DNA of 32,000 nt, from the NCBI GenBank assembly GCA_047651235.1, contig CP178758.1, positions 2,190,001 through 2,222,000 on the forward strand, read 5' to 3'. Origin of the DNA: Candidatus Electrothrix yaqonensis. GTDB taxonomy: Bacteria > Desulfobacterota > Desulfobulbia > Desulfobulbales > Desulfobulbaceae. Position 1 is the first letter of the stretch. Every line of letters begins with the position of its first letter. This document shows positions 2,426 to 17,672 of this stretch, one piece after another. Position numbers and translations under genes: made by a program. Below the pieces are notes generated by a model, which did not search any database, was not told the origin of the DNA, and saw only the letters and a program-made list of their open reading frames with translations.

Positions 2426-3682
2426 TTAATAGATGCCCAAAGCCTCAAGGGTTTCGAGTGTCAGACCGCCTCCCATGGGCAGATTGTTCTGCTCCTGGAA
2501 CTTCCTGACCGCCTCATTGGTCTGCGAATTCAGCGTACCGTCAATCATCCCGTTATAAAAACCTTCCCGGGACAGAGCACTCTGCACTTCTCTGACCTTG
2601 GCATTGTCTGCCTCATCTTTACACAGAGCAGGCCGCCAGACGATCTTACTGTCGCTGACCTTAACCTTCTTGATAATGGTTTTATACTCCGGCGGAACTG
2701 TGACGACTCTTTCTTCTGCCGGTTTCACGAGCTTTTTCACCCTGACAGTGTCGTATTCAGCCGGGACCGGAATAACCCGCTCCTGCGGTGGTGTGACCAT
2801 AACTTTCTTTCTGACCATCTTGGTCACCGGAGGAATCGGAATAACCTCGGTCCGGGCAGGCTCAACCATGACCTGCTTCCTGATCGTCCTTGTTTCGCCA
2901 GGAATCGGCACAACCTCGGTCCGGGCAGGCTCGGCAACAACCTTCTTTCTCACGGTTGTGTACTCAGCAGGGATCACAACTTCCTCACGTGTTCCCGGGC
3001 CATCAGGTACTTTTTTGATCACAGTCTTGTACATCGCCGGTACAGCCACATAGCAGAGCGTGTCACAGTCGGTCAGTCCCATTTCCATATCTTCAGGAGT
3101 ACAATGAACTGCCTTTTTGATCCATTTTGCAGACGGCGCCTGAACCAGAACCTGCTCCTTGACTTCTCTGAAGCTCGGATCGGTTATGGTCACCGTGATA
3201 ACCTCCGGTGAAACCATGACCTGTTCCTCGACCCAGTCATACACAGCCGGAATGGCTTTCAGTTCCTCAGAAGGCTCTTTGACAACAACTTCTTCTTCCA
3301 CCCACTCATACCTGGGCGGTATAACTTTAACTTCTTCAGATGCTTCCTTGATAACGACCTCTTCCTCACGCCAATCATACTGGGCCGGAACCGTCTCTAT
3401 TCTTTCAGAAGCCTCCTGTACTACCACCTGCTCGTCAACCCATTCATATTCAGCCGGGATGACCTCGATCCGTTCCATGGCCGGAGCTACTTCCACCTGC
3501 TCTTCAACATCCTCATACACAGCCGGAGCGAGACAGCGGGAGTAACACTCACCCGGCTGGACATTACTCGGCAATCCCTCCTGAACATACTGAGACGGAT
3601 CAACCTGCCCGTACTGAGCCATAGCCGGAGCAGACAGACCGAACAGCAACGCTGCCGCCATAACAAACTGTTTATTCTTCAT
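2426..3682 (-). CDS. Secreted repeat protein with C-terminal peptidoglycan-binding (PG_binding_1-like) domain
   Basis: 418 aa. Signal peptide MKNKQFVMAAALLFGLSAPAMA|Q. Acidic ~19-aa repeats ('IPAEYEWVDEQVVVQEASE'-type), then basic repeats ('EPARTEVVPIPGETRTIRKQVMV'-type). C-terminus 'VREVQSALSREGFYNGMIDGTLNSQTNEAVRKFQEQNNLPMGGGLTLETLEALG' fits the PG_binding_1 pattern. Paralog of 3819..5309. Confidence 0.8.
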   Translation of the reverse strand: MKNKQFVMAAALLFGLSAPAMAQYGQVDPSQYVQEGLPSNVQPGECYSRCLAPAVYEDVEEQVEVAPAMERIEVIPAEYEWVDEQVVVQEASERIETVPAQYDWREEEVVIKEASEEVKVIPPRYEWVEEEVVVKEPSEELKAIPAVYDWVEEQVMVSPEVITVTITDPSFREVKEQVLVQAPSAKWIKKAVHCTPEDMEMGLTDCDTLCYVAVPAMYKTVIKKVPDGPGTREEVVIPAEYTTVRKKVVAEPARTEVVPIPGETRTIRKQVMVEPARTEVIPIPPVTKMVRKKVMVTPPQERVIPVPAEYDTVRVKKLVKPAEERVVTVPPEYKTIIKKVKVSDSKIVWRPALCKDEADNAKVREVQSALSREGFYNGMIDGTLNSQTNEAVRKFQEQNNLPMGGGLTLETLEALGIY

Positions 3683-3818: not shown

Positions 3819-5309
3819 TTAATAAATCCCCAAGGAATCAAGGGTCTCAAGAGTCAGCCCTCCTCCCATGGGAAGACCTTTGTCCATCTGATATGTCCTA
3901 ATCGCCTCGTTGGTTTCCTGGTCCAGCATTCCGTTGATTTCACCGGAATAAAAGCCCTGCTGCATCAAAGCCTGCTGCACCTGCTGCACTTTTGATCCCG
4001 TTGCCTCGTCTTCACAAACCGCAGGCCGCCAGACGATTTTGCTGTCGCTGACTTTAACCTTCTTGGTAACCGTTTTATATTCAGGCGGCACCGTGACGAC
4101 TCTTTCCTCTGCCGGTTTGACGAGCTTCTTCACTCTGACAGTTTTGTATTCCGGAGGAATCGGCACAACTTCACTCCTGGCAGGTTCAACCAGCACGTTT
4201 TTCCTGACCGTTCTTGTTTCCGGAGGAATCGGCACAACTTCCGTTCTGGCAGGTTCAACCATGACCTGCTTCCGGATCATCCTCGTCTCGGGAGGAATGG
4301 GCAGCACCTCTGTTCTGGCAGGCTCAACCACCACCTTTGTCCTGACAGTCTTGTACTCGGCCGGAATGACGACCTCGTGCCGCTCACCACCGGTTCCGTC
4401 CGGAACCTTTTTGATGACGGTCTTATACAAGGCAGGCACTTCCACGTAACACAAGGTATCACAGTCGGTCAGGCCCATTTCAAGATCTTCGGGAGTACAA
4501 TGTACTGCCTTTTTGATCCACTTGGCAGACGGCGCCTGCACCAGCACCTGTTCCTTTACCTCGGTAAAACCGGGATCCGTGATGGTCACGTTGATCACTT
4601 CAGGCGAAACCATAACCTGTCCTTCCCGCCAGGCATAGACGGCAGGAACGACTTTCAGCTCCTCGGAAGCCTCCTTGATTATCACTTCCTCATCACGCCA
4701 TTCGTATTTGGCCGGAATGACTTTGACATCCTCAGATGCCTCTTTGATCACCACTTCCTCATCTTGCCATTCATATTTCGGCGGAATGGTTCTGATTTCT
4801 TCAGAAGCTTCCTGAATAAGCACCTGCTCCTCGGCCCATTCATACTCAGCCGGAATGACTTCAACCTTTTCTGAAGCAGGTTTTACCTCGATCTGCTCTT
4901 CAATCTCATCATAGACAGCCGGAGCAATACACCTGGAAAAACACTCGCCGGGCTGAACATTCATAGGCAGCCCTTCGCCAAGATCCTGATCTACCGGAGC
5001 CTGGCCTACCGGAGCCTGGCCTACTGGTGCCTGACCGACCGGAGCCTGCTGATATACCGGCGCCTGAGTTGCCGGTGCTTGGCCTACCGGAGCCTGCTGA
5101 TATACCGGGGCTTTCGCTGCTGGCGCCTGACCTGCCGGTGCCTGCTGATATACCGGGGCAACTTTCTGCTGCACCGGCTGATCACAGGGGTCCTGAACAC
5201 AATCTTGGGAACCGGAATCCTGCGGAACGTAAGCAACCTCTGTCACACAGCCGGTCAGGGCAAAGAGAGCAGCAGCTCCTATCACCGTTCCGTTCTTCAT
5301 TTTTTTCAT
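3819..5309 (-). CDS. Lipoprotein paralog of the repeat / peptidoglycan-binding protein, with an added Q/P/A-rich N-terminal spacer
   Basis: 496 aa. Strong SD (GGAGGAG, 7 nt upstream of the ATG). Lipobox 'ALFALTG|C' (Cys21). 'APVYQQAPxGQAPxxx' x3 followed by 'APVGQ' repeats. The rest has the same acidic-repeat, Cys-cluster, basic-repeat and PG-binding architecture as 2426..3682. Confidence 0.85.
   Translation of the reverse strand: MKKMKNGTVIGAAALFALTGCVTEVAYVPQDSGSQDCVQDPCDQPVQQKVAPVYQQAPAGQAPAAKAPVYQQAPVGQAPATQAPVYQQAPVGQAPVGQAPVGQAPVDQDLGEGLPMNVQPGECFSRCIAPAVYDEIEEQIEVKPASEKVEVIPAEYEWAEEQVLIQEASEEIRTIPPKYEWQDEEVVIKEASEDVKVIPAKYEWRDEEVIIKEASEELKVVPAVYAWREGQVMVSPEVINVTITDPGFTEVKEQVLVQAPSAKWIKKAVHCTPEDLEMGLTDCDTLCYVEVPALYKTVIKKVPDGTGGERHEVVIPAEYKTVRTKVVVEPARTEVLPIPPETRMIRKQVMVEPARTEVVPIPPETRTVRKNVLVEPARSEVVPIPPEYKTVRVKKLVKPAEERVVTVPPEYKTVTKKVKVSDSKIVWRPAVCEDEATGSKVQQVQQALMQQGFYSGEINGMLDQETNEAIRTYQMDKGLPMGGGLTLETLDSLGIY
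4986..5159 (-). repeat. In-frame tandem coding repeat (16-aa APVYQQAPxGQAPxxx x3, then 5-aa APVGQ x3)
   Basis: On the plus strand this is near-identical iterations of 'ccggagcctgctgatataccgg...' and 'ctaccggagcctggc'. It encodes aa 51-108 of the 496-aa lipoprotein. Confidence 0.85.
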
Positions 5310-5646: not shown

Positions 5647-7620
5647 CTAAACCACCCTTTCGTTACCGCCGTCAACCGGTATCTGCGCTCCTGTTGTGCA
5701 GGCAAATAACGGCCCGCACAATTCTGCTGCCAATTCAGCAACCTGTCGGCTTGAAATTTCCACGCCCAGCAGGTTTTCTTTTTTATACTCCTGCACTGTC
5801 AGGCCGTAATGCCCCGCCCGGGCCTGCAAGACCTCCTCGGTCCAAATTCCTGTATCAAAAACCGCGTTGGGATGCAGGGCATTCAGGCGGATGCCGTCAG
5901 CCGCCCATTCCAGGGCAGCAACCCGCATGAGCTGGGTCAGAGCAGCCTTGGAAGCTGAATACGCTGCAGCTCCCGGACCGGGCGCCGGTACATTTTTTGA
6001 ACCGATCATCACTACCCTTCCCCTGCCCGGAGCCAATTTCAGCAGGGGATGCGTTTCCCGCAGCAGGACCATATCGGCATCAAGATTGACCCGCATCACC
6101 CGGTGCCATTCCTCGATGGATAATTCCGCCACCGGACGGCTGGCCGGAAAAATTCCCGCATTCAGCACCAGCATATCCAGGCCGCCGAAACGGCGCACTG
6201 CCCGATCCAGCGCTTCCCGGATCTGCAACTCATCAGTAATATCACAGCGCAGGCCCAGAAAACCGGAAGCCCCGGATACATCGGCAACGCGGTCGTCAAT
6301 GTCCAGCCCGACCACAGCTGCTCCTCTCTGCAGAAACGAATCCACGCAGGCCCTGCCGATGCCGGAAGCCGTCCCGGTGATCAGGGCCACCTCACCGCTG
6401 AACAACGGCGCCGGACCGCTCCGGGCCAGTTTGGCCTGCTCCAGATCCCAGTATTCTACGGCAAACAGATCCGCTGCCGGTAATGCCTGCCAGCCTCCGA
6501 GTTTTTCCGCCCGCAGTATGCAGTGTATGGTGCGCGCATAAATATCCCGGACAACAGCTGCCTCCTCTGCCGATTTTCCGGCACAGCACAGGCCCAGCTC
6601 CTGATCCAGAATGACCCTCGGAGCCGGATCAAGCATGGTCTTGCGCTCCGTGGCCGCAGGTTCATGGGCCTCAAAATATTGACGGTACTCCTGCCTATAA
6701 TGATCCACGTCGCGACCGAGCATGGGCACGGCCTTGGTCCGGAGAACATGATCCGGTGTTGCCGGGCCCTGCTGGGAAATACGGCCGATATCAGCACGCC
6801 GGGCAAAATCTTTTCCCTGCGTGCTCTCCGTCACATGCAGAATCATGGGACGGCCCGCTTTCCCTGAAACCGCCCGGCGCAACTCCGCAATCTCCACCCG
6901 GTTACATTGCATCCCGTCTTCTGCAGCAGGCGCATCAAGTTTCCAGGCATGGTGTTCCGCCAGATAGCGTTCCGCCATATCCACCAGCTGAATCATCCGC
7001 TCGTAGGATTCCTGCGCGGTTGCGCCAAAGGAAAAGACCCCGTGATTCATCAGGACCAGACCGATGGTCCGGGGCCCGGCCTGTTCAGCAAACAGACAGG
7101 CAACAGCGCGGGCCAGATCAAAACCGGGCATTACATACGGCACAATGATGACTGAATCGCCGTACAGTGCTTCAATCCGTCCGCGTCCGTCCGCCGTATT
7201 GGTTATAGTCACCACGGCATCGGCATGAGTATGATCCACATAGCGGAACGGCAGAACAGCATGGAGAATGGTCTCCACAGAAGGAGCAGGCGCGTCGGCA
7301 CGGGTCACCTGCGTTTTCAGCTCGTTGATCATCTGCGGATCAGAAAGCGCCTCCAATTCTGCCAGCCTGAGCATGGGCTGCAGACGCACCGGTGCAAAAC
7401 CTGCTGCTTCAATAGATTCCAGGTCCCAGCCGCTCCCTTTAATATAGAGAATCTCCTCCTCGTCACCGACCGCGTTCTTTTCCCGGATCTTCACCGAGGT
7501 ATTGCCGCCGCCATGCAGCACCAGCGCCGGATCACGGCCCAGCAGACGGGAAGAATAGACCCGCAGTTCAAGTTCGGTTGTACATGCCGCAGCGTCCTGC
7601 GTATTCCATAAACTCAACAT
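5647..7620 (-). CDS. Bifunctional class II aldolase/adducin-domain plus short-chain dehydrogenase (rhamnulose-1-phosphate aldolase/alcohol dehydrogenase-like)
   Basis: 657 aa. The N-terminal two-thirds carry class II aldolase features ('LHGGGNTS', 'VDHTHAD', 'GVFSFG'). The C-terminal SDR has 'TGTASGIGRA' (TGxxxGIG), 'NAG' and 'YSASKAA' (YxxxK). Confidence 0.85.
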   Translation of the reverse strand: MLSLWNTQDAAACTTELELRVYSSRLLGRDPALVLHGGGNTSVKIREKNAVGDEEEILYIKGSGWDLESIEAAGFAPVRLQPMLRLAELEALSDPQMINELKTQVTRADAPAPSVETILHAVLPFRYVDHTHADAVVTITNTADGRGRIEALYGDSVIIVPYVMPGFDLARAVACLFAEQAGPRTIGLVLMNHGVFSFGATAQESYERMIQLVDMAERYLAEHHAWKLDAPAAEDGMQCNRVEIAELRRAVSGKAGRPMILHVTESTQGKDFARRADIGRISQQGPATPDHVLRTKAVPMLGRDVDHYRQEYRQYFEAHEPAATERKTMLDPAPRVILDQELGLCCAGKSAEEAAVVRDIYARTIHCILRAEKLGGWQALPAADLFAVEYWDLEQAKLARSGPAPLFSGEVALITGTASGIGRACVDSFLQRGAAVVGLDIDDRVADVSGASGFLGLRCDITDELQIREALDRAVRRFGGLDMLVLNAGIFPASRPVAELSIEEWHRVMRVNLDADMVLLRETHPLLKLAPGRGRVVMIGSKNVPAPGPGAAAYSASKAALTQLMRVAALEWAADGIRLNALHPNAVFDTGIWTEEVLQARAGHYGLTVQEYKKENLLGVEISSRQVAELAAELCGPLFACTTGAQIPVDGGNERVV

Positions 7621-9623: not shown

Positions 9624-12600
9624 TCAGAACAGGCTCAACTGCTTCCCGACATTCTTTTTCCTCCGCTTCTTCTTTACCTCCACCGGATTATGCAGTAACT
9701 CCGGCGGTACTTCAGCTAGAAAACGGGACGGGATACGCTGCTCAACCCCGGCAAATCCCCGCCGCTCTTTGGCTCCGGTGAGATACAGCACTTCGGCAGC
9801 GCGGGTCATGCCGACAAAAAAGAGCCGCCGTTCTTCGGCAAGATGCTCTTGCTCCGCCTCCGGGGCAAGTTCGCTACGCGGGGTCAGCGGCAGCAGGCCC
9901 TCTTCACAGCCCACCATAAACACAGCCCGGAACTCCAACCCCTTGGCCGCATGGAGGGTGGCCAGCAGCACGGCCTCGGCCCGGTCATCGTAGATAACGC
10001 TGTCCTGGTGTCTGCGCAGGTGCTCGGCAAAGGCAGGCAGGGAGGCGGCTGAGGCGGCCATCTGCCGGAAGCGGAGCAGCTCAGGATCTTCCCGGTCAAA
10101 GCCGTACTGTTCGATGAGAAAGTCAACAGCCCTGATGACGGATTCCTGTCCGGCCAGCCGGGATGCAAGATTGTTCAATTCGCTGACGCGCTTCTGCAGC
10201 GTTTCCGGCAAAGCAGCTTCAGCAAGGGCCGTCAGCGGCCGCCTGCTTTTCTCCTCACTCAGCACCTGTTCAGCAGCGGCCAGAGCGTTGGCACCGATCC
10301 CCTTTTCCTGGCCGAGCAGGAAAAGCAGTTCCGCTGGATCAATCCGGTCGGCAGCCAGCAGAAGATGGTAATAGAGGTGCTTGACCTCGCCGCGCAGATA
10401 AAAGGGCTGCACATCAACCACTTGACAGGGGATGGTCCGGTCGGTCAGGGCCCGTGTGATGGTTTCAGCCTGACGGGAGGTGCGGTAAAGCACTGCAATC
10501 TCGGACAGAGCCAAGCTGCCCTCCCCTGCTCCGCTGAGCCAGTCGATCTCCCGGTGCGAAGTGCCACCGATGAGCTGCTGAATCTGCCCGGCAATGAAAC
10601 TCGCCTCCGCCTTGGCTGTGGGGGAGAGATGCCGATAAATGACACCGGGGCTGTCCGAAGCCGCCTGCGCGCGGCGTTCTTCCCCTGCCTCATGCCCAGT
10701 ATCATGATTGGCCGCAATGACCTCCCTCGCGGCCTTGAGGATATCGGCCCCGCTGCGGTAATTGGTCGCCAAGTGATGGAACTCCGGTTCCTGTTCCGTA
10801 ACAAAACGGTGGAACCAAGCCGGGTTGGAACCCCGGAATCCGTAGATCGCCTGATCCGGGTCACCAATAGCAAAGACGGTGCCGGTCTTAGCAAGCAGGC
10901 GGACCAGCTCGTACTGCGCAGCATTGAGATCCTGAAATTCATCCACCAGCAAATGCGCTGCCGCTGTCCGGATTTCTTCGGCAAAACCCTTGTCCTTCTG
11001 CATCAGAGCAGTGCAGGCCGGGACGATCTCATCCAGTTCCATCAGATGCTGCTCCCGGAGATACTGAAAATAAGGCCGCAGGGCTTCCGGACAGGCAGAC
11101 AGATCGGGCAATACAGCTTGCCCGGAGAGAAACAGCCCAGTCTCCCGCTGTAGCTGTTTCCGCTCCCGCTCGGCAAGCTGCAGGTACTGTTTCCGGAATA
11201 TCCAAGTCCGCATTTCCGGTCCGGCCAGCTGGAGGTCCGGATTTTGGCGGCGCAGCCAGTGCAGACAAAAGCCGTGGAAGGTATCCACCCGAACGATCTG
11301 TTTCGCATCATCATCCTGCACAGCGGCCAGCCGTTGCCGGATTTCCTCAGCCGCCTTATTGGTAAAGGTGATCACCGTAATCGGCCCCTGCTTCTGCGCC
11401 AGCAGGCGGAGAACCCGCTGCACCAGAGTATGGGTCTTGCCTGTACCCGGCCCGGCTTGGACAATAATTCGGGCAGCGTTGCTGTCCACGGCCGCCTGCT
11501 GTTCCGGGTTGAGTTCTTTTTTCTCCTCCAGTCGGCCGATCTTCTTTTTCCTGCTGATCACCGTCTGTTTCCTTTTTTTCTGCCGGGGCTTGGCCGGGGT
11601 TATCCCGAAAAGATTGAGCTGCCCGGCGAGCTGCTCCCGTTCATCCTCCGCAAAGACCTGAATCACCCCGAACTGGCCGTCAAAGCCAGGCCTGCGGATG
11701 ACCTTGTTCTCCCGCACCCGCTCAATGGCTTTGGCCAGCAGAGGCGAGACAGGAGCAATTTCCGCAATGGGCGTGTCCAGCAGGATATTGAATTCCGAAC
11801 CGAAGGTATTGATCAAATTGCCGTAGACCGTGTTCACCTTCTTGGTCGCCGAGCCGCAGTTAAACAGCTCGCCCAGCAGTTCCGGCAGGGGAATCAGGCT
11901 GTGCATAGCCGGAGCGCCTTCCGACCAGACAGCAGCTTCCCGATCAGCCAGCTCCATGACCCGGTAGAGCACCCCGATGGTCAGTGGTCTGCCGCATTCC
12001 GGGCAGATGCCGTTGGCCTCCACGGTTTGGGCCGGTTCAAAACAGACCCCGCATTTGCGGTGGCCGTCGCAATGGTACTTGCCCTCTTCCGGGTAAAATT
12101 CAATCGTGGCCTGAAAACGCTGCTGACCATCTGCATCCTGCGGATGACGCAGGGCCTCCTGCAGGACGAAAAAATCCAAATCGGTGTTGAAGATATTGCA
12201 GTTCCGGCCCAGCTTGGCCGGAGAATGACAGTCGGAGTTGGAGATCAGGGAAAAACGGTCCAGAGCAGAAATGTGGCGGTTCATCTCAGGGTCGGAAGAC
12301 AGACCGGTTTCCAGAGCAAAGATCTCGCTGCTCAGCCCGTCAAAGCACTCCTCAATGCTGTCAAATCCAGACTTGGAGCCGAATAGGGAAAACCAGGGCG
12401 TCCAGATATGGGCCGGGACCAAAAATCCTTGGGGCGCGTGTTCCAGCAGAATTTCCAGCAGGATTTTGGAGTCCAGTCCAAGAATGGGCCGTCCGTCCGA
12501 CTCCAAGTTGCCGATCCCGGCCAAGGCGGTGTTAATCCGGCGCACAGCATCAAAATCAGGGGCATAAAGAATATTATGTACCTTGCGCACCTTGCCGCCC

Positions 12601-12911
12601 CTTTTGTAAATGGAGCTGATCTCTGAGCTGAGGAGAAACCGGATCTTTGAGCAGTCCGGCTGCACGCCCGGCGGCAGGATCGGAACCAGTTCATCCAGGG
12701 AAGGCGCTTCCTTGAGGCGGAATAACCCCGGCTCTGCCGGTTCCAGTTTTTCCGTCAGATGGGCAAACCAACCCGGATGGGTGAAATCGCCGGTGGCGAC
12801 AAGGTCAATGCCCTTAATGGCTGCCCAGGCTGCCAGTCCGTCCAGGTTGCTGGCCTTGCTGGTGGCGCGGGAGTAATGGGAGTGAATGTGGAGGTCGGCG
12901 ATATAGGGCAT
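9624..12911 (-). CDS. Fusion protein: EndoQ-like PHP-domain/Zn-ribbon endonuclease (aa 1-~420) plus UvrD/PcrA-type SF1 helicase (aa ~467-1095)
   Basis: 1095 aa.
N-terminal nuclease part: 'DLHIHSHYSRATS', 'PAHIWTPWFS', 'LETGLSSD', 'NSDCHSP', and a Zn ribbon 'CDGHRKCGVC...CPECG'.
Linker: basic, 'KPRQKKRKQTVISRKKKIGRLEEKKE'.
Helicase motifs: 'LNPEQQAAV', 'AGPGTGKTHT' (I), 'TFTNKAAEE' (Ia), 'LLVDEFQDLN' (II), 'GDPDQAIYGFRGS' (III), 'LATNYRS' (IV), 'TLHAAKGLEF' (V), 'RRLFFVGMTRA' (VI). Confidence 0.9.
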   Translation of the reverse strand: MPYIADLHIHSHYSRATSKASNLDGLAAWAAIKGIDLVATGDFTHPGWFAHLTEKLEPAEPGLFRLKEAPSLDELVPILPPGVQPDCSKIRFLLSSEISSIYKRGGKVRKVHNILYAPDFDAVRRINTALAGIGNLESDGRPILGLDSKILLEILLEHAPQGFLVPAHIWTPWFSLFGSKSGFDSIEECFDGLSSEIFALETGLSSDPEMNRHISALDRFSLISNSDCHSPAKLGRNCNIFNTDLDFFVLQEALRHPQDADGQQRFQATIEFYPEEGKYHCDGHRKCGVCFEPAQTVEANGICPECGRPLTIGVLYRVMELADREAAVWSEGAPAMHSLIPLPELLGELFNCGSATKKVNTVYGNLINTFGSEFNILLDTPIAEIAPVSPLLAKAIERVRENKVIRRPGFDGQFGVIQVFAEDEREQLAGQLNLFGITPAKPRQKKRKQTVISRKKKIGRLEEKKELNPEQQAAVDSNAARIIVQAGPGTGKTHTLVQRVLRLLAQKQGPITVITFTNKAAEEIRQRLAAVQDDDAKQIVRVDTFHGFCLHWLRRQNPDLQLAGPEMRTWIFRKQYLQLAERERKQLQRETGLFLSGQAVLPDLSACPEALRPYFQYLREQHLMELDEIVPACTALMQKDKGFAEEIRTAAAHLLVDEFQDLNAAQYELVRLLAKTGTVFAIGDPDQAIYGFRGSNPAWFHRFVTEQEPEFHHLATNYRSGADILKAAREVIAANHDTGHEAGEERRAQAASDSPGVIYRHLSPTAKAEASFIAGQIQQLIGGTSHREIDWLSGAGEGSLALSEIAVLYRTSRQAETITRALTDRTIPCQVVDVQPFYLRGEVKHLYYHLLLAADRIDPAELLFLLGQEKGIGANALAAAEQVLSEEKSRRPLTALAEAALPETLQKRVSELNNLASRLAGQESVIRAVDFLIEQYGFDREDPELLRFRQMAASAASLPAFAEHLRRHQDSVIYDDRAEAVLLATLHAAKGLEFRAVFMVGCEEGLLPLTPRSELAPEAEQEHLAEERRLFFVGMTRAAEVLYLTGAKERRGFAGVEQRIPSRFLAEVPPELLHNPVEVKKKRRKKNVGKQLSLF

Positions 12912-12967: not shown

Positions 12968-12996
12968 AGCTTAAAGGCATGTGCAGGGGATGTCAA
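12968..12996 (-). promoter_or_regulatory. Sigma70-like promoter for the EndoQ-UvrD gene
   Basis: Minus strand reads TTGACA (12996-12991), a 17-nt spacer, then TAAGCT (12973-12968). This is ~55 nt upstream of the ATG at 12911. Confidence 0.45.
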
Positions 12997-13056: not shown

Positions 13057-13455
13057 TTACAGCCAATTTTCGACCCGCAACCCGGCAACTCGCTCAAACT
13101 CCCTCAGATTATTCGTGACAACAATTAAGCCCTCGCTCCGGGCATGTCCGGAGATATGCAAATCATTCACCCCGATCGGTGTCCCGCGCCGTTCCAGGTC
13201 GGTGCGAATATCACCGTAATGTTCAGCTGCTTTTCTGCCGTACTCCAGGATTTCCAGCCGTGAAGCAAAATCCTCCACCTGACGCAGGTTATGTTCCGGC
13301 TTGGCAGATTTTTCCACCCCGTGCATCAACTCGGCAAAAGTGATTGAGCTGATGCACATCTGACCGGCATGGCGATTAAACGTGTCCAGCACTTCCAATG
13401 GACGCCGTTTGATCACATAAATAGCAATGTTGGTATCCAGCATGTATTTCAGCAT
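13057..13455 (-). CDS. vapC: VapC PIN-domain toxin (tRNA(fMet)-cleaving VapC/MvpT type)
   Basis: 132 aa. 'MLKYMLDTNIAIYVIKRRP...MCISSITFAELMHGVEKS...HARSEGLIVVTNNLREFERVAGLRVENW' is collinear with enteric VapC/MvpT as I recall it. The start overlaps the vapB stop (ATGA). Confidence 0.95.
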   Translation of the reverse strand: MLKYMLDTNIAIYVIKRRPLEVLDTFNRHAGQMCISSITFAELMHGVEKSAKPEHNLRQVEDFASRLEILEYGRKAAEHYGDIRTDLERRGTPIGVNDLHISGHARSEGLIVVTNNLREFERVAGLRVENWL

Positions 13456-13688
13456 CAGAACGCTTCCCGTTCCTGCTGTTCCTGGGAAGCGCGTTCTGTC
13501 ATGAAATCATCCGTCACTTGTTCCTCGGACTTGAAAAAACTGTCCCAAGCCTCCCCCACCGGAGAAAGTACGCGATCTTTCCCCACAATACGCACGATAA
13601 CCTTTTTCACAGAGTTCGGAAAACGGGTTTCCAAGGGCAGCCTGACCGCCTGCGTTCGATTATTAATAAAAACTGATCCGATACGCAT
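13455..13688 (-). CDS. vapB: VapB antitoxin (AbrB/SpoVT-type)
   Basis: 77 aa, from the internal ATG at 13688 (the ORF-track ORF extends to 13808). SD GGAGG lies 7 nt upstream. 'MRIGSVFINNRTQAVRLPLETRFPNSVKKVIVRIVGKDRVLSPVGEAWDSFF' matches the VapB/MvpA pattern. Confidence 0.9.
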   Translation of the reverse strand: MRIGSVFINNRTQAVRLPLETRFPNSVKKVIVRIVGKDRVLSPVGEAWDSFFKSEEQVTDDFMTERASQEQQEREAF

Positions 13689-13712
13689 GAAGCACCTCCT
13701 TTCAGATGAAAG

Positions 13713-13752
13713 TATATACCGGAAGTATATAGCGTGCCGCCGCAAGCGACAA
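13713..13752 (-). promoter_or_regulatory. vapBC promoter with overlapping palindromic operator
   Basis: Minus strand reads TTGTCG (13752-13747), 17 nt, then TATACT (13729-13724). The palindrome TATATAC-cggaa-GTATATA (13713-13731) overlaps the -10 element and the expected transcription start. Confidence 0.5.
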
Positions 13753-13974
13753 GTGCAAATCACCGGTGTGTGCAAATTATCGGCCCTGTTAAGAGGATGT
13801 GCAAACAATATCGGCAGCCAGTACTGCCTCTACTGAGGCACCTTCTGTATAAGAAGCTGTTTTGAAAACCGCTGGCCAGAAAAGGGCGTATTGAAAATCT
13901 CTTCGGATACAGTCGGTTAAGATTTCCTTCTCTCCAATATAGCTGAAGCAGAATAAAAAGAGTATAATATCGAC

Positions 13975-14134: not shown

Positions 14135-15012
14135 ATGCCCCTGTCATGGAATGAAATACGCAACCGGGCCTTTGCCTTTGCTGCGGAATGGAAGGACGAA
14201 AGCAGCGAACATGCTGAAGCCAAATCGTTCTGGGATGATTTTTTCAATGTGTTCGGCATTTCCCGGAGGCGGGTCGCCAGCTTTGAGCAACATATAAAAA
14301 AAGGCGACGGCAAAGCCGGGTTTATTGATCTGCTCTGGAAAGGCACCCTGTTGATTGAACATAAATCCAAGGGCCGTGACTTGGACCGCGCCCATGAGCA
14401 GGCCACAGATTATTTTTCCGGTCTGACCGAAAAAGAGCTGCCCAAGTTCATTCTGGTTTCCGATTTTGAACAATTCCGGCTCTATGACTATGATCAGGGC
14501 GGGAAAATCGTTGCCGAGTTTCGGCTTGCGGACCTGCCCGCCCATATCAAGCATTTCGCCTTTATGGCGGGCTATACAGCAACGGAAGTTCGCCCGGAAG
14601 ATCCGGTCAACATCAAGGCGGCGGAAAAAATGGGCCGCCTGCATGATGAGCTCAAGGCTATCGGCTATACGGGCCATGATCTGGAGCGGTATCTTGTCCG
14701 CCTGCTCTTCTGTCTCTTTGCCGAAGATACAGGGATTTTCGAGAGAAATTTGCTCCGCGACCTGATTCGGCTGCATACCGCTGAAGACGGTTCCGACCTT
14801 GCCGACCGCCTGAACCATCTTTTTCAGGTGCTCAACACGCCTCATGAAAAACGGCTGCAAACCCTGCCGGAACATTTAGCGGCCTTTGAATATATCAACG
14901 GCGACCTGTTCGCTGAATCCCTGCCCGTGGCCGGTTTCAATGCTGACATGCGCAACATGCCTGCGAGCTGAATTGGGCCGGAATCTCTCCGGCTATTTTC
15001 GGCAGCCTGTTC
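14135..15012 (+). pseudogene. Frameshifted, 3'-truncated MmeI-family type IIG (IIL) restriction-modification enzyme; only the nuclease and helical-spacer region remains
   Basis: 'MPLSWNEIRNRAFAFAAEWKDESSEHAEAKSFWDDFFNVFGISRRRVASFE...GFIDLLWKGTLLIEHKSKGRDLDRAHEQATDYF...LVSDFEQFRLYD' is collinear with the MmeI N-terminus as I recall it. The D-x9-E-x-K nuclease motif is intact. The frame breaks near 14958. 'ACELNWAGISPAIFGSLF' continues in another frame to 15012. After that no methyltransferase or target-recognition sequence follows. Intact enzymes are ~900+ aa. Confidence 0.8.
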
Positions 15013-15300: not shown

Positions 15301-17616
15301 TCAGTTGTCCTTCCTGTATTTGGTGCTGTTTCTGCTGTCCTGTCGGGTCCAATCGCCGGTGTTGGTGTAGTTTGTATCACCGATCTCAAGACTCACCGTC
15401 ATGTTTCCGGGGAGGAGATTATTCAGGGCTTCTCCGTCAAAATCAACATATCTGATTTTGACGGTACAGGTTTCCTTACTGAAGATACACCGCACCATAT
15501 TGCCGTTATCGTCGCTGTAGATCATTCGGTTGCCTGACGCATCAAAGCTGGCTCCCGCAAAGTGGTATCCCGGAAACTCGAAAGTTAGGGGCGTTCCGTT
15601 TTCCGCAGCAGCCTTAGCTACTGTTTCAATATCAGTCACGCCTGTCATTTTAAACGCGGCAACGTCTCTGTGCCCTTGTGTTTTGTCAATGATCTGGCCA
15701 GTTGTATTTACTGGTACCATATAAGGCCTAACTGTTACAGTTGCTGCACAGGCAGCAGGAGCTCCCTCTTCATCCGTTACAGTCAATGTGACCTTGTTCT
15801 CTCCCAAATCGGCAGAGGTAAAATCTGACTTATCGATACTGAGTTCGATGGGACGACCTTCAGGACCGGATGATCCGCCGTCAATATCCTCGGCAGAAAT
15901 AGTAGCGTGCCGGTTTTCATCCAAAGCAACTTCTATATCTTGACATACAGCTTCTGGTGCCAGCACTGTGGCATAGCTGGATATGTCTACTGACAGCTCA
16001 ACGTTGCCAGTCGCAGATTCAATTAAGTCAACCCTTCCGCAATACGGAAAATACGGCACAACCAATTGGAAGTTCGCCTCATCTAGCCATGTCGGCCCTT
16101 CATAGCCTTGCTCAGCTTGTACTCTTCTCGGATCGGGAATTACAAACTCTTTCAGTACTGCGTTGCCATTCGAAACGACTTTTACCGTAAATGTGTCGTC
16201 TCCAGGGAGATATTCAGGTGGAGAGTCTACTACATAACTCTCTTTCAATAGGCTGAATTCTCCTGCTGATACTTGTATGTCCAACCATATTGATTTACCC
16301 GCTTCACCTGAAAATTCTGCTTCTGCAGATGCGGTGCCGGGGTTATTATCTAAGATCCATTGAATTCTTCTTGAAGCCGGTTGTCCCCATCCGTTAGTAA
16401 AGAAATTTCCGTCTCGCATGATGAAGTCGGTAGTAGTAAATTTCCACCAATCAGTAGTGCAGGTTGTAAACATATAACAATCATTGGGATCGCCCCATCC
16501 TTCGTCGGTTACATCAGCCCGACAATCGTCTTCCAAATCCCAAACATTCGGCATTGGATTAGGCTCAAAGCGATGTGTGGTACAATCAGGAGCGTCGTCA
16601 TATTCATCCGCCAGTCGGAATAATCCATGTCCTGCCTCATGAATAAATGACCTCCCAACAGCCCCTTCCGCACTGAATGTGCGTGGTATACCGTTAGTCC
16701 AATCACTGAATGTTTCGGTATGTAAGATACTAAAGGCTTCCACCCAAGGGGCAACTCGAGTTATGTCAGCGGGAAGGATGTGATTAGGTCTAATTGAATC
16801 TCCCTGCATTCTGGTGTAGTAGAAATTGAAGCTGTCAAGATTGCCGGTTACCGGAGTTGCTGCACCTAGTCTTTGATCAATCTGATCTTGAATGTCGTCG
16901 ATGAAATCCGGTAGCCATGTATCGATATCTGCCGGTGCTCCATAGTCCTCATCCGGTACAAATACTAAATCAATCCTGTCGTCATGTCTTCCAATATCTC
17001 TTCCTGGCACAGGGAGAACGGCCTTATTGGCATCTGTGCAAAGATCATCTACCACCCAGAAGTTGCCTGTATCATGAATCATGACATAGGCGATAGTTTC
17101 TCCTGCAGGAGCCTCAACAGTCAAACGAGTGAAGGTTCTCGTATTTAAATTGTTTTCAGCCCAACCACTGGTCGCTATTAATGTCCCATCATTATCATAG
17201 GCATCTAAAATCAGACCAGACCCTGTGCTGACAAGAACGGAGCAATAACTAGCCCCTCCCCCAAGGAAATCAATCCGCCCGGCATCTCCTAATGTTCCTA
17301 GCCAAGCAAAAAAATTTCCATTAGTTTCATAATACGCAGACCCGTAAGGATAAATGTTATATCGTTCAGTCCGAATATCCGCGTATTTCCAGTTAAATTC
17401 ATCTGTTGTAGTGAACTGGAGACTGGGAATTGTGCTTTCTATTTCGATATCGTCAATTCCCGCTTCAAAATCCATAAAAAAATCATCTGCATTTCTGCAT
17501 GAATTCGGGGTGCCAGCTGGCCAACCTTCTTCGACCTCAGCCTGAAGAGTCGGCACTCCTGTAATAAAAAACGTACTTGCCATGAATAATAACGTGGTGG
17601 GTAATAGGTATCTCAT
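15301..17616 (-). CDS. Secreted M64-type (IgA-peptidase-like) zinc metallopeptidase with C-terminal Ig/HYR-like domains
   Basis: 771 aa from the ATG at 17616 (GGAGG 5 nt upstream; the ORF track begins at GTG 17619). Signal peptide 'LLPTTLLFMASTFFITGVPTLQA|E'. Zinc motif 'FIHEAGHGLFRLADEYD' (HExxHx6DEY, characteristic of M64). The C-terminal 'CQDIEVALDENRHATISAEDIDGGSSG...VTLTVTDEEGAPAACAATVTV' is an Ig-like module. Confidence 0.8.
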   Translation of the reverse strand: MRYLLPTTLLFMASTFFITGVPTLQAEVEEGWPAGTPNSCRNADDFFMDFEAGIDDIEIESTIPSLQFTTTDEFNWKYADIRTERYNIYPYGSAYYETNGNFFAWLGTLGDAGRIDFLGGGASYCSVLVSTGSGLILDAYDNDGTLIATSGWAENNLNTRTFTRLTVEAPAGETIAYVMIHDTGNFWVVDDLCTDANKAVLPVPGRDIGRHDDRIDLVFVPDEDYGAPADIDTWLPDFIDDIQDQIDQRLGAATPVTGNLDSFNFYYTRMQGDSIRPNHILPADITRVAPWVEAFSILHTETFSDWTNGIPRTFSAEGAVGRSFIHEAGHGLFRLADEYDDAPDCTTHRFEPNPMPNVWDLEDDCRADVTDEGWGDPNDCYMFTTCTTDWWKFTTTDFIMRDGNFFTNGWGQPASRRIQWILDNNPGTASAEAEFSGEAGKSIWLDIQVSAGEFSLLKESYVVDSPPEYLPGDDTFTVKVVSNGNAVLKEFVIPDPRRVQAEQGYEGPTWLDEANFQLVVPYFPYCGRVDLIESATGNVELSVDISSYATVLAPEAVCQDIEVALDENRHATISAEDIDGGSSGPEGRPIELSIDKSDFTSADLGENKVTLTVTDEEGAPAACAATVTVRPYMVPVNTTGQIIDKTQGHRDVAAFKMTGVTDIETVAKAAAENGTPLTFEFPGYHFAGASFDASGNRMIYSDDNGNMVRCIFSKETCTVKIRYVDFDGEALNNLLPGNMTVSLEIGDTNYTNTGDWTRQDSRNSTKYRKDN

Positions 17617-17672
17617 CACATCCTCCCTAGTTGAATAATTTGCAGCAGAAAAATTCTGTCAGCGTACTCCAA

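Follow-up and report, generated by a model that had tools for sequence, protein, structure and literature searches.

Long-form endonuclease Q fused to a UvrD-type helicase in Candidatus Electrothrix yaqonensis: a member of a widespread bacterial family with a probable role in genome maintenance

The window analyzed here, a stretch of 32,000 nucleotides from Candidatus Electrothrix yaqonensis (contig CP178758.1, positions 2,190,001 to 2,222,000), carries on its minus strand a gene encoding a fusion protein of 1095 amino acids (aa), in which an endonuclease Q (EndoQ) module is followed by a helicase of the UvrD type. In the list of open reading frames (ORFs) of the window, this ORF runs from ATG to TGA and spans exactly positions 9624..12911. 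The protein is 100% identical to an entry of the cable bacterium Candidatus Electrothrix sp. YB6 labelled 'UvrD-helicase domain-containing protein', and the genes of the family are labelled in the databases only in this manner or as 'TIGR00375 family'. An earlier interpretation made from the DNA letters (hereafter the sequence-only reading) had placed an EndoQ and a superfamily 1A (SF1A) helicase of the UvrD/PcrA type on one polypeptide. NCBIfam, phmmer searches of the Protein Data Bank (PDB), Pfam and Foldseek showed that this assignment is correct, and the EndoQ and UvrD match scores are far above chance level. The motif strings that had been quoted, the linker rich in lysine and arginine (K/R) and all SF1A motifs were each present at the place indicated, with DLHIHSHYS at aa 6-14, PAHIWTPW at aa 166-173, LETGLSSD at aa 200-207, NSDCHSP at aa 225-231, CDGHRKCGVC...CPECG at aa 281-307 and RRPGFDGQFGVIQVF at aa 406-420.

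The EndoQ module occupies aa 1-424 (positions 11640..12911, minus strand) and comprises a metal-dependent nuclease barrel of the PHP type, a Zn-binding domain and a C-terminal helical domain (PF27218 MJ0043_C, a precomputed annotation on homologues). By phmmer against the PDB, the P. furiosus enzyme PfuEndoQ (5zb8, 7k30, 7k31) was matched over aa 5-422 at E 1.5e-52. Its identity to the window module is ~36%. The N-terminal 420 aa matched NCBIfam TIGR00375, a 'hypoth_equivalog' model of 374 positions, at E 1.7e-51. A Pfam check for a PHP domain, proposed by the sequence-only reading, came out negative: with our local Pfam copy, aa 1-440 gave no PHP match and none at all at E<=1, and the NCBIfam, PDB and fold searches were decisive instead. 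The structural comparison of the AlphaFold2 (AF2) model with PfuEndoQ, proposed at the same time, gave the expected answer, with a template-modelling (TM) score of 0.82-0.83, an rmsd of 3.6 Å and 32% identity to 5zb8. Against 7k30, the N-terminal half scored 0.80, and the three-domain fold, including the C-terminal helical domain, was retained.

Residue conservation was assessed in an alignment of 186 full-length fusions, 14 short relatives and PfuEndoQ. The metal ligands H8, H10, E97, H112, H168, D227 and H229 correspond to H8, H10, E76, H84, H139, D193 and H195 of PfuEndoQ, for which the ligand list and residue roles were taken from Miyazono 2018 (PMC5961232) and further residue roles from a Cells 2021 review (PMC8307549). 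These ligands are invariant in the fusions (186/186) as well as in the short forms (14/14). The lesion pocket consists of H168, T171, E201, T202, G203, L204, S205, N225 and D227, which are equivalent to H139, T142, E167, L168, G169, L170, S171, N191 and D193 of PfuEndoQ. Pocket residues T142, E167, G169, L170 and S171 (Pfu numbering) are invariant in 186/186 fusions, and two further sites are near-invariant, position 202 being T in 185/186 and position 225 being N in 172/186. The Zn site is of a variant H-C-C-C type, with H284 (97% of the fusions), C287, C303 and C306 (100% each) as predicted ligands; the further cysteines of the window protein, C281 and C290, vary across the fusions. Judged from these residues, the nuclease module is complete and looks catalytically intact.

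The SF1A helicase core, of the UvrD/PcrA/Rep type, lies at aa 466-1070 (positions 9702..11516, minus strand) and contains domains 1A, 1B, 2A and 2B. Its motifs were identified as Q (Q471), I (GPGTGKT, K492), Ia, II (DEFQD, aa 657-661), III (GDPDQAIYGFRG), IV (NYRS), V and VI (VGMTRA). In the C-terminal 640 aa, Pfam returned AAA_19 and both of the families that the sequence-only reading had named for this part, UvrD-helicase at E 4e-52 and UvrD_C at E 4e-41. Residues 11-648 of PcrA (1pjr) are colinear with aa 10-619 of the helicase part (phmmer, E 1e-57), and Foldseek gave TM 0.73-0.77 between the helicase half and DNA-bound structures of UvrD, PcrA and Rep. The catalytic motif residues Q471, K492, D657/E658, R693, R719, R810 and R1037, which include the Walker A lysine (K492) and arginines of motifs III, IV and VI, are 97-100% conserved among the 186 fusions. 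The C-terminal (Tudor) region of PcrA, past residue ~648, is missing, and a basic tail with a clamp-like motif is found there instead. The helicase looks catalytically intact, and an ATP-dependent unwinding in the 3'->5' direction would be expected from its family membership only.

The two modules are joined by a basic linker at aa 436-465 (PAKPRQKKRKQTVISRKKKIGRLEEKKE; positions 11517..11606, minus strand), and a basic tail follows the helicase at aa 1071-1090 (...VEVKKKRRKKNVGK; positions 9642..9701, minus strand). The full-length AF2 model, built with 40 homologues, had a mean per-residue confidence (pLDDT) of 77 and a predicted TM score (pTM) of 0.55. The pLDDT fell below 50 at aa 433-463, in the linker, and at aa 1081-1095, in the tail, and both segments are predicted to be disordered. 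Among the fusions, the linker measures 24-149 aa with a median K/R fraction of 0.17, and the median K/R fraction reaches 0.24 over the 25 residues preceding the terminal motif. A Foldseek search with the full-length model found no solved structure that spans both halves. The two halves co-diverge (Spearman 0.42 over 3000 pairs); median pairwise identity is 56% for the nuclease vs 35% for the helicase, which therefore diverges faster.

Two clamp-binding-like motifs, both absent from the sequence-only reading, were found in the segments predicted to be disordered by AF2 pLDDT. The protein ends in QLSLF at aa 1091-1095 (positions 9627..9641, minus strand, followed by the stop codon at 9624-9626), its C-terminus reading ...KKKRRKKNVGKQLSLF; QLSLF agrees at every position with the beta-sliding-clamp-binding consensus QL[S/D]LF. 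A review gives the consensus as Q-phi-x-[LM]-[FL], with QLxLF as the best form (PMC11139829). The QLxLF form occurs inside the last 12 aa in 111/116 close homologues, in 43/61 fusions from genome loci and in 56/124 distant representatives, and a relaxed C-terminal motif is present in 152/186 fusions, vs 7/16,631 background windows (0.04%). The other motif, G430-Q-L-N-L-F435, is located at the junction of nuclease and linker (positions 11607..11624, minus strand), at a position which matches that of the C-terminal motif of short bacterial EndoQs. G430, Q431, L434 and F435 are invariant among Desulfobulbaceae in a 40-sequence alignment, and the junction pattern Qxx[LMI]F was found in 98/186 fusions vs 0.5% of control windows.

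In archaeal EndoQ, a C-terminal PCNA-interacting protein (PIP) box binds PCNA with a dissociation constant of 55 nM, and PCNA stimulates the activity; in the same study, bacterial homologues were said to carry beta-clamp motifs (Shiraishi et al. 2016, PMC4858679). Supplementary Figure S1 of this study lists short forms with QxxLF at ~aa 401-464 and more than 30 long forms with the motif at aa 941-1244, including proteins of Geobacter metallireducens, Desulfovibrio vulgaris and Zymomonas mobilis. As it is listed in that figure, the long form with its terminal clamp motif was catalogued already in 2016, although neither the text nor the supplement mentions the helicase. The list also includes Desulfobulbus japonicus WP_028582461, with QLSLF at 1092-1096, which is essentially an orthologue of the window gene. 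The window protein is of the same length class as these long forms, has the terminal QLSLF at the same position and shows no structural difference from them. The window gene belongs to the long-form bacterial EndoQ family of Shiraishi et al. 2016. According to Miyazono 2018 (PMC5961232), EndoQs have been sorted into three families 'based on the domain organization'; of the two bacterial families described by Shiraishi et al. 2017, one probably corresponds to the long forms.

Full-length identity to the window protein decreases from ~78% in Electrothrix through ~70% in Electronema to ~55% in other Desulfobulbaceae, and spans 53-79% over the Desulfobulbaceae members. Relatives of the N-domain were detected in at least 593 species in a scan of one genome per species. 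We then considered the best 80 loci of N-domain relatives in species genomes, spread over about ten phyla, where fusions (>=950 aa) were found at 61 loci and stand-alone forms (~413-460 aa) at 11. The taxa represented were Thermodesulfobacteriota, Binatia, Nitrospirota, Acidobacteriota, Bacteroidota/Balneolota/Rhodothermota, Planctomycetota, Spirochaetota, Chloroflexota, Elusimicrobiota, Actinomycetota and Melainabacteria. Also, an exhaustive search of representatives of 50%-identity clusters gave 1024 matches at E<=1e-30, and proteins of >=950 aa made up 124 of the best 150. EndoQ has been described as present in a limited number of bacteria (PMC5961232, PMC8438529), and the sequence-only reading had likewise presented it as a stand-alone enzyme of few bacteria; the counts above make this view outdated. 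The fusion is a widespread family, chromosomally and vertically inherited.

The short forms are scattered among the fusions in a neighbour-joining tree of the N-domain (a crude distance tree, without support values), and for 10 of 14 short forms the nearest fusion is at least as close as any other short form. This scattering suggests that they arose by repeated loss of the helicase, and not from an ancestral split. A split version, with EndoQ beside a UvrD gene, was not seen: no helicase lies within 6 kb at any of the 11 short-form loci. In Desulfobacteraceae and Desulfobacterium metagenome-assembled genomes (L049, L066), the proteins of 458-460 aa are 87-89% identical to the N-domains of nearby fusions and extend only a little beyond the junction motif and linker; a helicase was not found within 6 kb of either gene. 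These look like recent truncations of fusions, not like an old stand-alone lineage. At five other loci from gut or uncultured lineages, e.g., Candidatus Limenecus avicola (L041, L052, L072, L082, L083), shorter ORFs of 776-973 aa were observed. In several of these, a second tblastn segment carries on the helicase similarity, and masked X residues are present in L052. Such ORFs may reflect frameshifts, assembly errors or a compact helicase variant without part of the 2B region.

The genomic context was examined at 60 fusion loci by neighbour clustering. There is no universal operon partner, the commonest neighbour family being found in 10/60 loci. In two non-cable Desulfobulbaceae genomes (L004, L005), the fusion gene comes after the row rplU-rpmA-obg-proB-proA plus one more gene, which is nadD-like in L004 and has no assignment in L005. 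The start of the fusion gene overlaps this last gene of the row, and downstream lie genes for a histidine kinase, a GGDEF regulator, a CBS protein and YjeF. nadD and proA are neighbours in 6-7 Desulfobulbales loci, dnaN, gyrB and a lytic transglycosylase in 5-7 loci of Desulfobacterales type, and in Electronema halotolerans the fusion gene lies near gyrB and rdgC. In six Desulfobacterales loci, dnaN and gyrB are directly adjacent to it. At six loci of Desulfobacterales type (L037, L038, L060, L064, L074, L077), the stretch from dnaN to the fusion gene encodes two small conserved proteins of ~204 and ~174 aa, with no Pfam match, at ~0.1-1.3 kb upstream of the fusion gene (e.g., L060:5200-5814, L037:4739-5263). 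Their recurrence could mean that they are lineage-specific partners, or it could merely come with the dnaN-gyrB neighbourhood.

Among cable bacteria, the neighbours differ from genome to genome. In the window, the fusion gene is directly preceded, on its own strand, by a toxin-antitoxin (TA)-like pair (13057-13808), consisting of a PIN-domain (VapC-type) protein of 132 aa (13057-13455, minus strand; Pfam PIN E 3.5e-20) and, abutting it upstream, an antitoxin-sized ORF with no Pfam match (13455-13808, minus strand). Electrothrix Rat3 (L001) and Electronema halotolerans (L003) likewise have PIN genes upstream of their orthologues. This proximity is probably a coincidence, if cable-bacterium genomes are as TA-rich as the three loci suggest. 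Further on, an MmeI-type restriction-modification gene of 278 aa (14135-14971, plus strand) is truncated to MmeI_N (E 5e-49) and MmeI_hel (E 3e-25), without the methyltransferase and target-recognition parts, and looks like a dead remnant. The defence-type neighbourhood noted by the sequence-only reading is real as to the PIN pair and the dead-looking MmeI fragment, but it is local to this rearranged genome and the neighbours are different elsewhere.

EndoQ nicks DNA immediately 5' of deoxyuridine (dU), deoxyinosine (dI), deoxyxanthosine (dX) and apurinic/apyrimidinic (AP) sites, leaving a 3'-OH. Motors of the UvrD family translocate 3'->5' and start from nicks. Based on domains, conservation, distribution and context, the product of this chromosomally inherited gene, a long-form bacterial EndoQ, is probably a housekeeping enzyme of genome maintenance, which would perform a clamp-docked, nick-then-unwind alternative excision repair of dU, dI and AP sites. 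Between the two roles considered by the sequence-only reading, this evidence favours the compact alternative-excision repair enzyme. We hypothesize that a deaminated or missing base (dU, dI, dX, AP site) is flipped by the EndoQ module into its conserved pocket and that the module cuts the phosphodiester bond immediately 5' of the lesion; the ends left would be a 3'-OH and, on the lesion nucleotide, a 5'-phosphate. The nick would next be engaged by the UvrD/PcrA-type motor, which the flexible basic linker of ~30 residues keeps tethered. Moving 3'->5' along the intact strand, the motor would approach and pass the lesion and peel off the strand that bears it as a 5' flap. A flap nuclease or 5'-exonuclease would remove the flap, a polymerase would extend the 3'-OH, and a ligase would seal the nick. 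By way of its two QxxLF-type motifs, that of the junction and the C-terminal one, the enzyme may dock on the beta sliding clamp, coupling the search for lesions and the hand-over of the 3'-OH to replication or repair synthesis. Such docking would be the bacterial counterpart of the link between the PIP box of archaeal EndoQ and PCNA. The clamp motifs together with the replication-gene neighbourhoods point to clamp-coupled repair, and a pathway model of the Ishino laboratory for EndoQ already invokes 'removal by helicase activity' (PMC4357722, Fig. 10 legend).

Several observations weigh against this interpretation. The nuclease match stays under the curated cut-off of TIGR00375 (175.8 bits vs 326.6), the Pfu pocket residue L168 is replaced by Thr (T202) throughout the bacterial clade, and one of the four Zn ligands, which are all Cys in PfuEndoQ (C249, C252, C268, C271), is His in this clade. 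The helicase misses the NCBIfam equivalog cut-offs for pcrA (284 vs 911 bits), uvrD (260 vs 1144) and rep (251 vs 951), and appears on its scores as a separate UvrD-like subfamily, not as a UvrD, PcrA or Rep equivalog. Because both halves are below the NCBIfam cut-offs, they are divergent subfamily members and their specificities could differ. No confident inter-domain docking was obtained in the full-length model and, with its inter-domain geometry not confident at this pTM, the strand engaged by the motor is pure inference. Clamp binding by both motifs is inferred from a short linear motif only. That short forms are nested among the fusions shows the helicase to be dispensable for the nuclease. 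Finally, our literature search found no functional study of the helicase-fused long form; the sequence-only reading was right in knowing of no functional description, but it had missed the listing of the long form with its clamp motif in 2016 (PMC4858679). The low identity to PfuEndoQ, the sub-threshold TIGR00375 score and the changes in the pocket and the Zn site of the whole clade would fit a shifted substrate of the bacterial long-form EndoQ domain, e.g., ribonucleotides, mismatches or other base damage, in a repair pathway different from that of archaeal EndoQ. However, the residues to which a steric exclusion of T and A has been attributed (H139, G169, S171; PMC8307549) are invariant, as is the rest of the pocket, and a stand-alone bacterial enzyme, that of Bacillus pumilus, keeps the dU, dI and AP specificity (PMC6202378, PMC8438529), so that we consider a shifted substrate very improbable. 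The long and disordered linker of variable length, the lack of a confident interface, the faster divergence of the helicase and the repeated origin of helicase-less forms, whose nicking needs no motor, are what would be seen if the modules were tethered without the helicase acting on the EndoQ nick. The motor could then be an ATP-driven translocase for lesion search or a turnover factor stripping the tightly bound nuclease from its product, or it could be the UvrD-like helicase of the lineage for other pathways, with EndoQ riding along for clamp co-localisation. Such an arrangement is rather unlikely, given that the fusion has been kept across about ten phyla with its helicase catalytic motifs nearly invariant, that the two halves co-diverge, and that the helicase scores below the UvrD, PcrA and Rep equivalog cut-offs; not being such an equivalog, it is unlikely to be the general UvrD of the cell.

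The sequence-only reading had also left open an immunity role, and such a nuclease-helicase of the Nhi or Gabija kind would use EndoQ to nick invading phage or mobile DNA containing dU or other non-canonical bases, which the helicase would process for destruction. The vapBC pair and the truncated MmeI-type gene beside the window gene are suggestive of this, as are the PIN toxin genes upstream in two other cable-bacterium genomes and the scores of the helicase part on PADLOC GajB models. Also, a review relays the suggestion of an antiviral role for Bacillus EndoQ, which is insensitive to the PBS1 inhibitor Ugi (PMC8307549), and according to a preprint (bioRxiv 10.1101/2024.12.27.630466) an anti-phage DNase, 'Wukong', combines a PHP exonuclease at its N-terminus with a C-terminal ATPase in one polypeptide of ~1026 aa. 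Gabija GajA/GajB, Nhi, ppl and 'Wukong' do resemble the window protein in their gross architecture, a nuclease combined with an ATPase or helicase. However, the GajB matches reflect the shared UvrD ancestry and cover the generic UvrD core only. No GajA (an OLD-type ATPase-TOPRIM nuclease) or other OLD partner was found beside the fusion gene in the window, the neighbours being the PIN toxin, the antitoxin-sized ORF, the MmeI fragment and small ORFs. The nuclease domain had no match at E<=1 in PADLOC (2023 library, without Wukong) and none in PHROGs. No relatives were found in 50,697 phage genomes and 2.9 M viral contigs, and 72,556 plasmids gave a single distant match, a 28%-identical stand-alone EndoQ on a 733-kb Brevibacillus replicon. 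When PADLOC was run on the 148 immediate neighbours from 58 fusion loci, no family was matched by more than 2 of these proteins, and no neighbour family recurs at more than 10 of the 60 loci. Outside cable bacteria, the context is one of conserved housekeeping or replication genes, and the conservation of a beta-clamp-like motif suggests a function in host replication and repair. Apart from these neighbours, the window carries genes of ordinary chromosomal metabolism, including a fusion of class II aldolase/adducin and short-chain dehydrogenase (SDR) domains of 657 aa (5647-7620, minus strand; rhamnulose-1-phosphate aldolase/SDR-type by domain architecture), and for this reason the region is not a defence island. 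Identity follows taxonomy. Because inheritance is vertical, the context syntenic and an association with defence or mobile genes absent, the defence reading fails on the ground that had been fixed for it beforehand, and an immune function is very improbable. The fusion gene is most probably not a phage-defence gene, and genes of this family should not be scored as such on the basis of matches to GajB models.

Going beyond clamp-docked excision repair as such, the long form may be the predominant bacterial EndoQ and a self-contained, beta-clamp-docked excision machine, which would nick, peel off the damaged strand, hold the dimeric clamp with its two motifs and hand the 3'-OH to a polymerase. 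The junction motif would then have been inherited from the short form, and the other motif would sit at the new C-terminus. We put this forward tentatively, as a proposal that is somewhat more doubtful than not. If true, a glycosylase-independent, replication-coupled pathway of uracil and hypoxanthine repair would exist in more than 10 bacterial phyla, and the question of what follows the EndoQ nick would be answered.

Compared with the archaeal enzymes (PfuEndoQ PF1551 and TkoEndoQ; 5ZB8, 7K30-33), the window protein has a common three-domain fold (TM 0.82), identical metal ligands and a near-identical pocket. Both carry a short C-terminal sliding-clamp motif, and the archaeal enzyme has a genome-maintenance role (PMC4858679). 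Archaeal EndoQ is a stand-alone protein of ~400-425 aa with a PIP box for PCNA and a C4 Zn site, whereas the window protein has a 640-aa SF1A helicase, two QLxLF-type beta-clamp-like motifs and an H-C-C-C Zn site, and scores under the TIGR00375 cut-off. UvrD, PcrA and Rep are SF1A helicases which act at nicks in nucleotide excision repair, mismatch repair and rolling-circle replication. The window protein shares with them all helicase motifs and the 1A/1B/2A/2B fold. Unlike them, it is not an equivalog, ends in a basic tail with a clamp-like motif and brings its own predicted nickase, while UvrD, PcrA and Rep rely on UvrC, MutH, MutL or RepC. The closest functional analogy that we found outside the family is E. 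coli Lhr, where, as is predicted for the window protein, a repair helicase is joined to a uracil-recognizing enzyme. We know of no clamp motif in E. coli Lhr. It is an SF2 helicase fused to a uracil-DNA glycosylase domain, its folds are unrelated (SF2 Lhr core and AlkZ-like glycosylase), and it removes the base without nicking the strand (PMC10953399).

The gene described here is an ordinary member of a widespread family, which has been catalogued and for which we found no biochemical characterization in the literature. Work on repair started by EndoQ has been confined almost entirely to Thermococcales, one methanogen and Bacillus, and the steps after the 5' nick are still drawn as a model (PMC4357722). 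Our survey adds that the close bacterial relatives sampled usually carry a UvrD-type motor and clamp-binding-like tails. A natural fusion of this kind indicates which activity nature couples to the EndoQ nick, and the long form offers a single-protein system for working out the post-nick steps. Tractable hosts possessing it are listed in the 2016 supplement, namely Desulfovibrio vulgaris, Geobacter metallireducens and Zymomonas mobilis.

Some minor features of the window remain to be described. The sequence-only reading had credited the fusion gene with a consensus-like promoter. A possible promoter does lie upstream (12968..12996, minus strand), with a perfect -35 TTGACA (12996-12991) and a 17-nt spacer, but its -10 TAAGCT (12973-12968) is weak, agreeing at 3/6 positions, and a consensus promoter scan of the window reported nothing upstream of the fusion gene; we retain it as weak and putative. 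Two adjacent ORFs of 418 and 496 aa (2426-3682 and 3819-5309, minus strand) each end in a PG_binding_1 domain, their N-terminal parts having no Pfam match. Lastly, an ORF of 772 aa (15301-17619, minus strand), also without Pfam match, begins with a signal-peptide-like N-terminus (MMRYLLPTTLLFMASTFFITGVPTLQA) and contains an HExxH motif (FIHEAGHGLF); it may encode a secreted zinc metalloprotease of an undescribed family.

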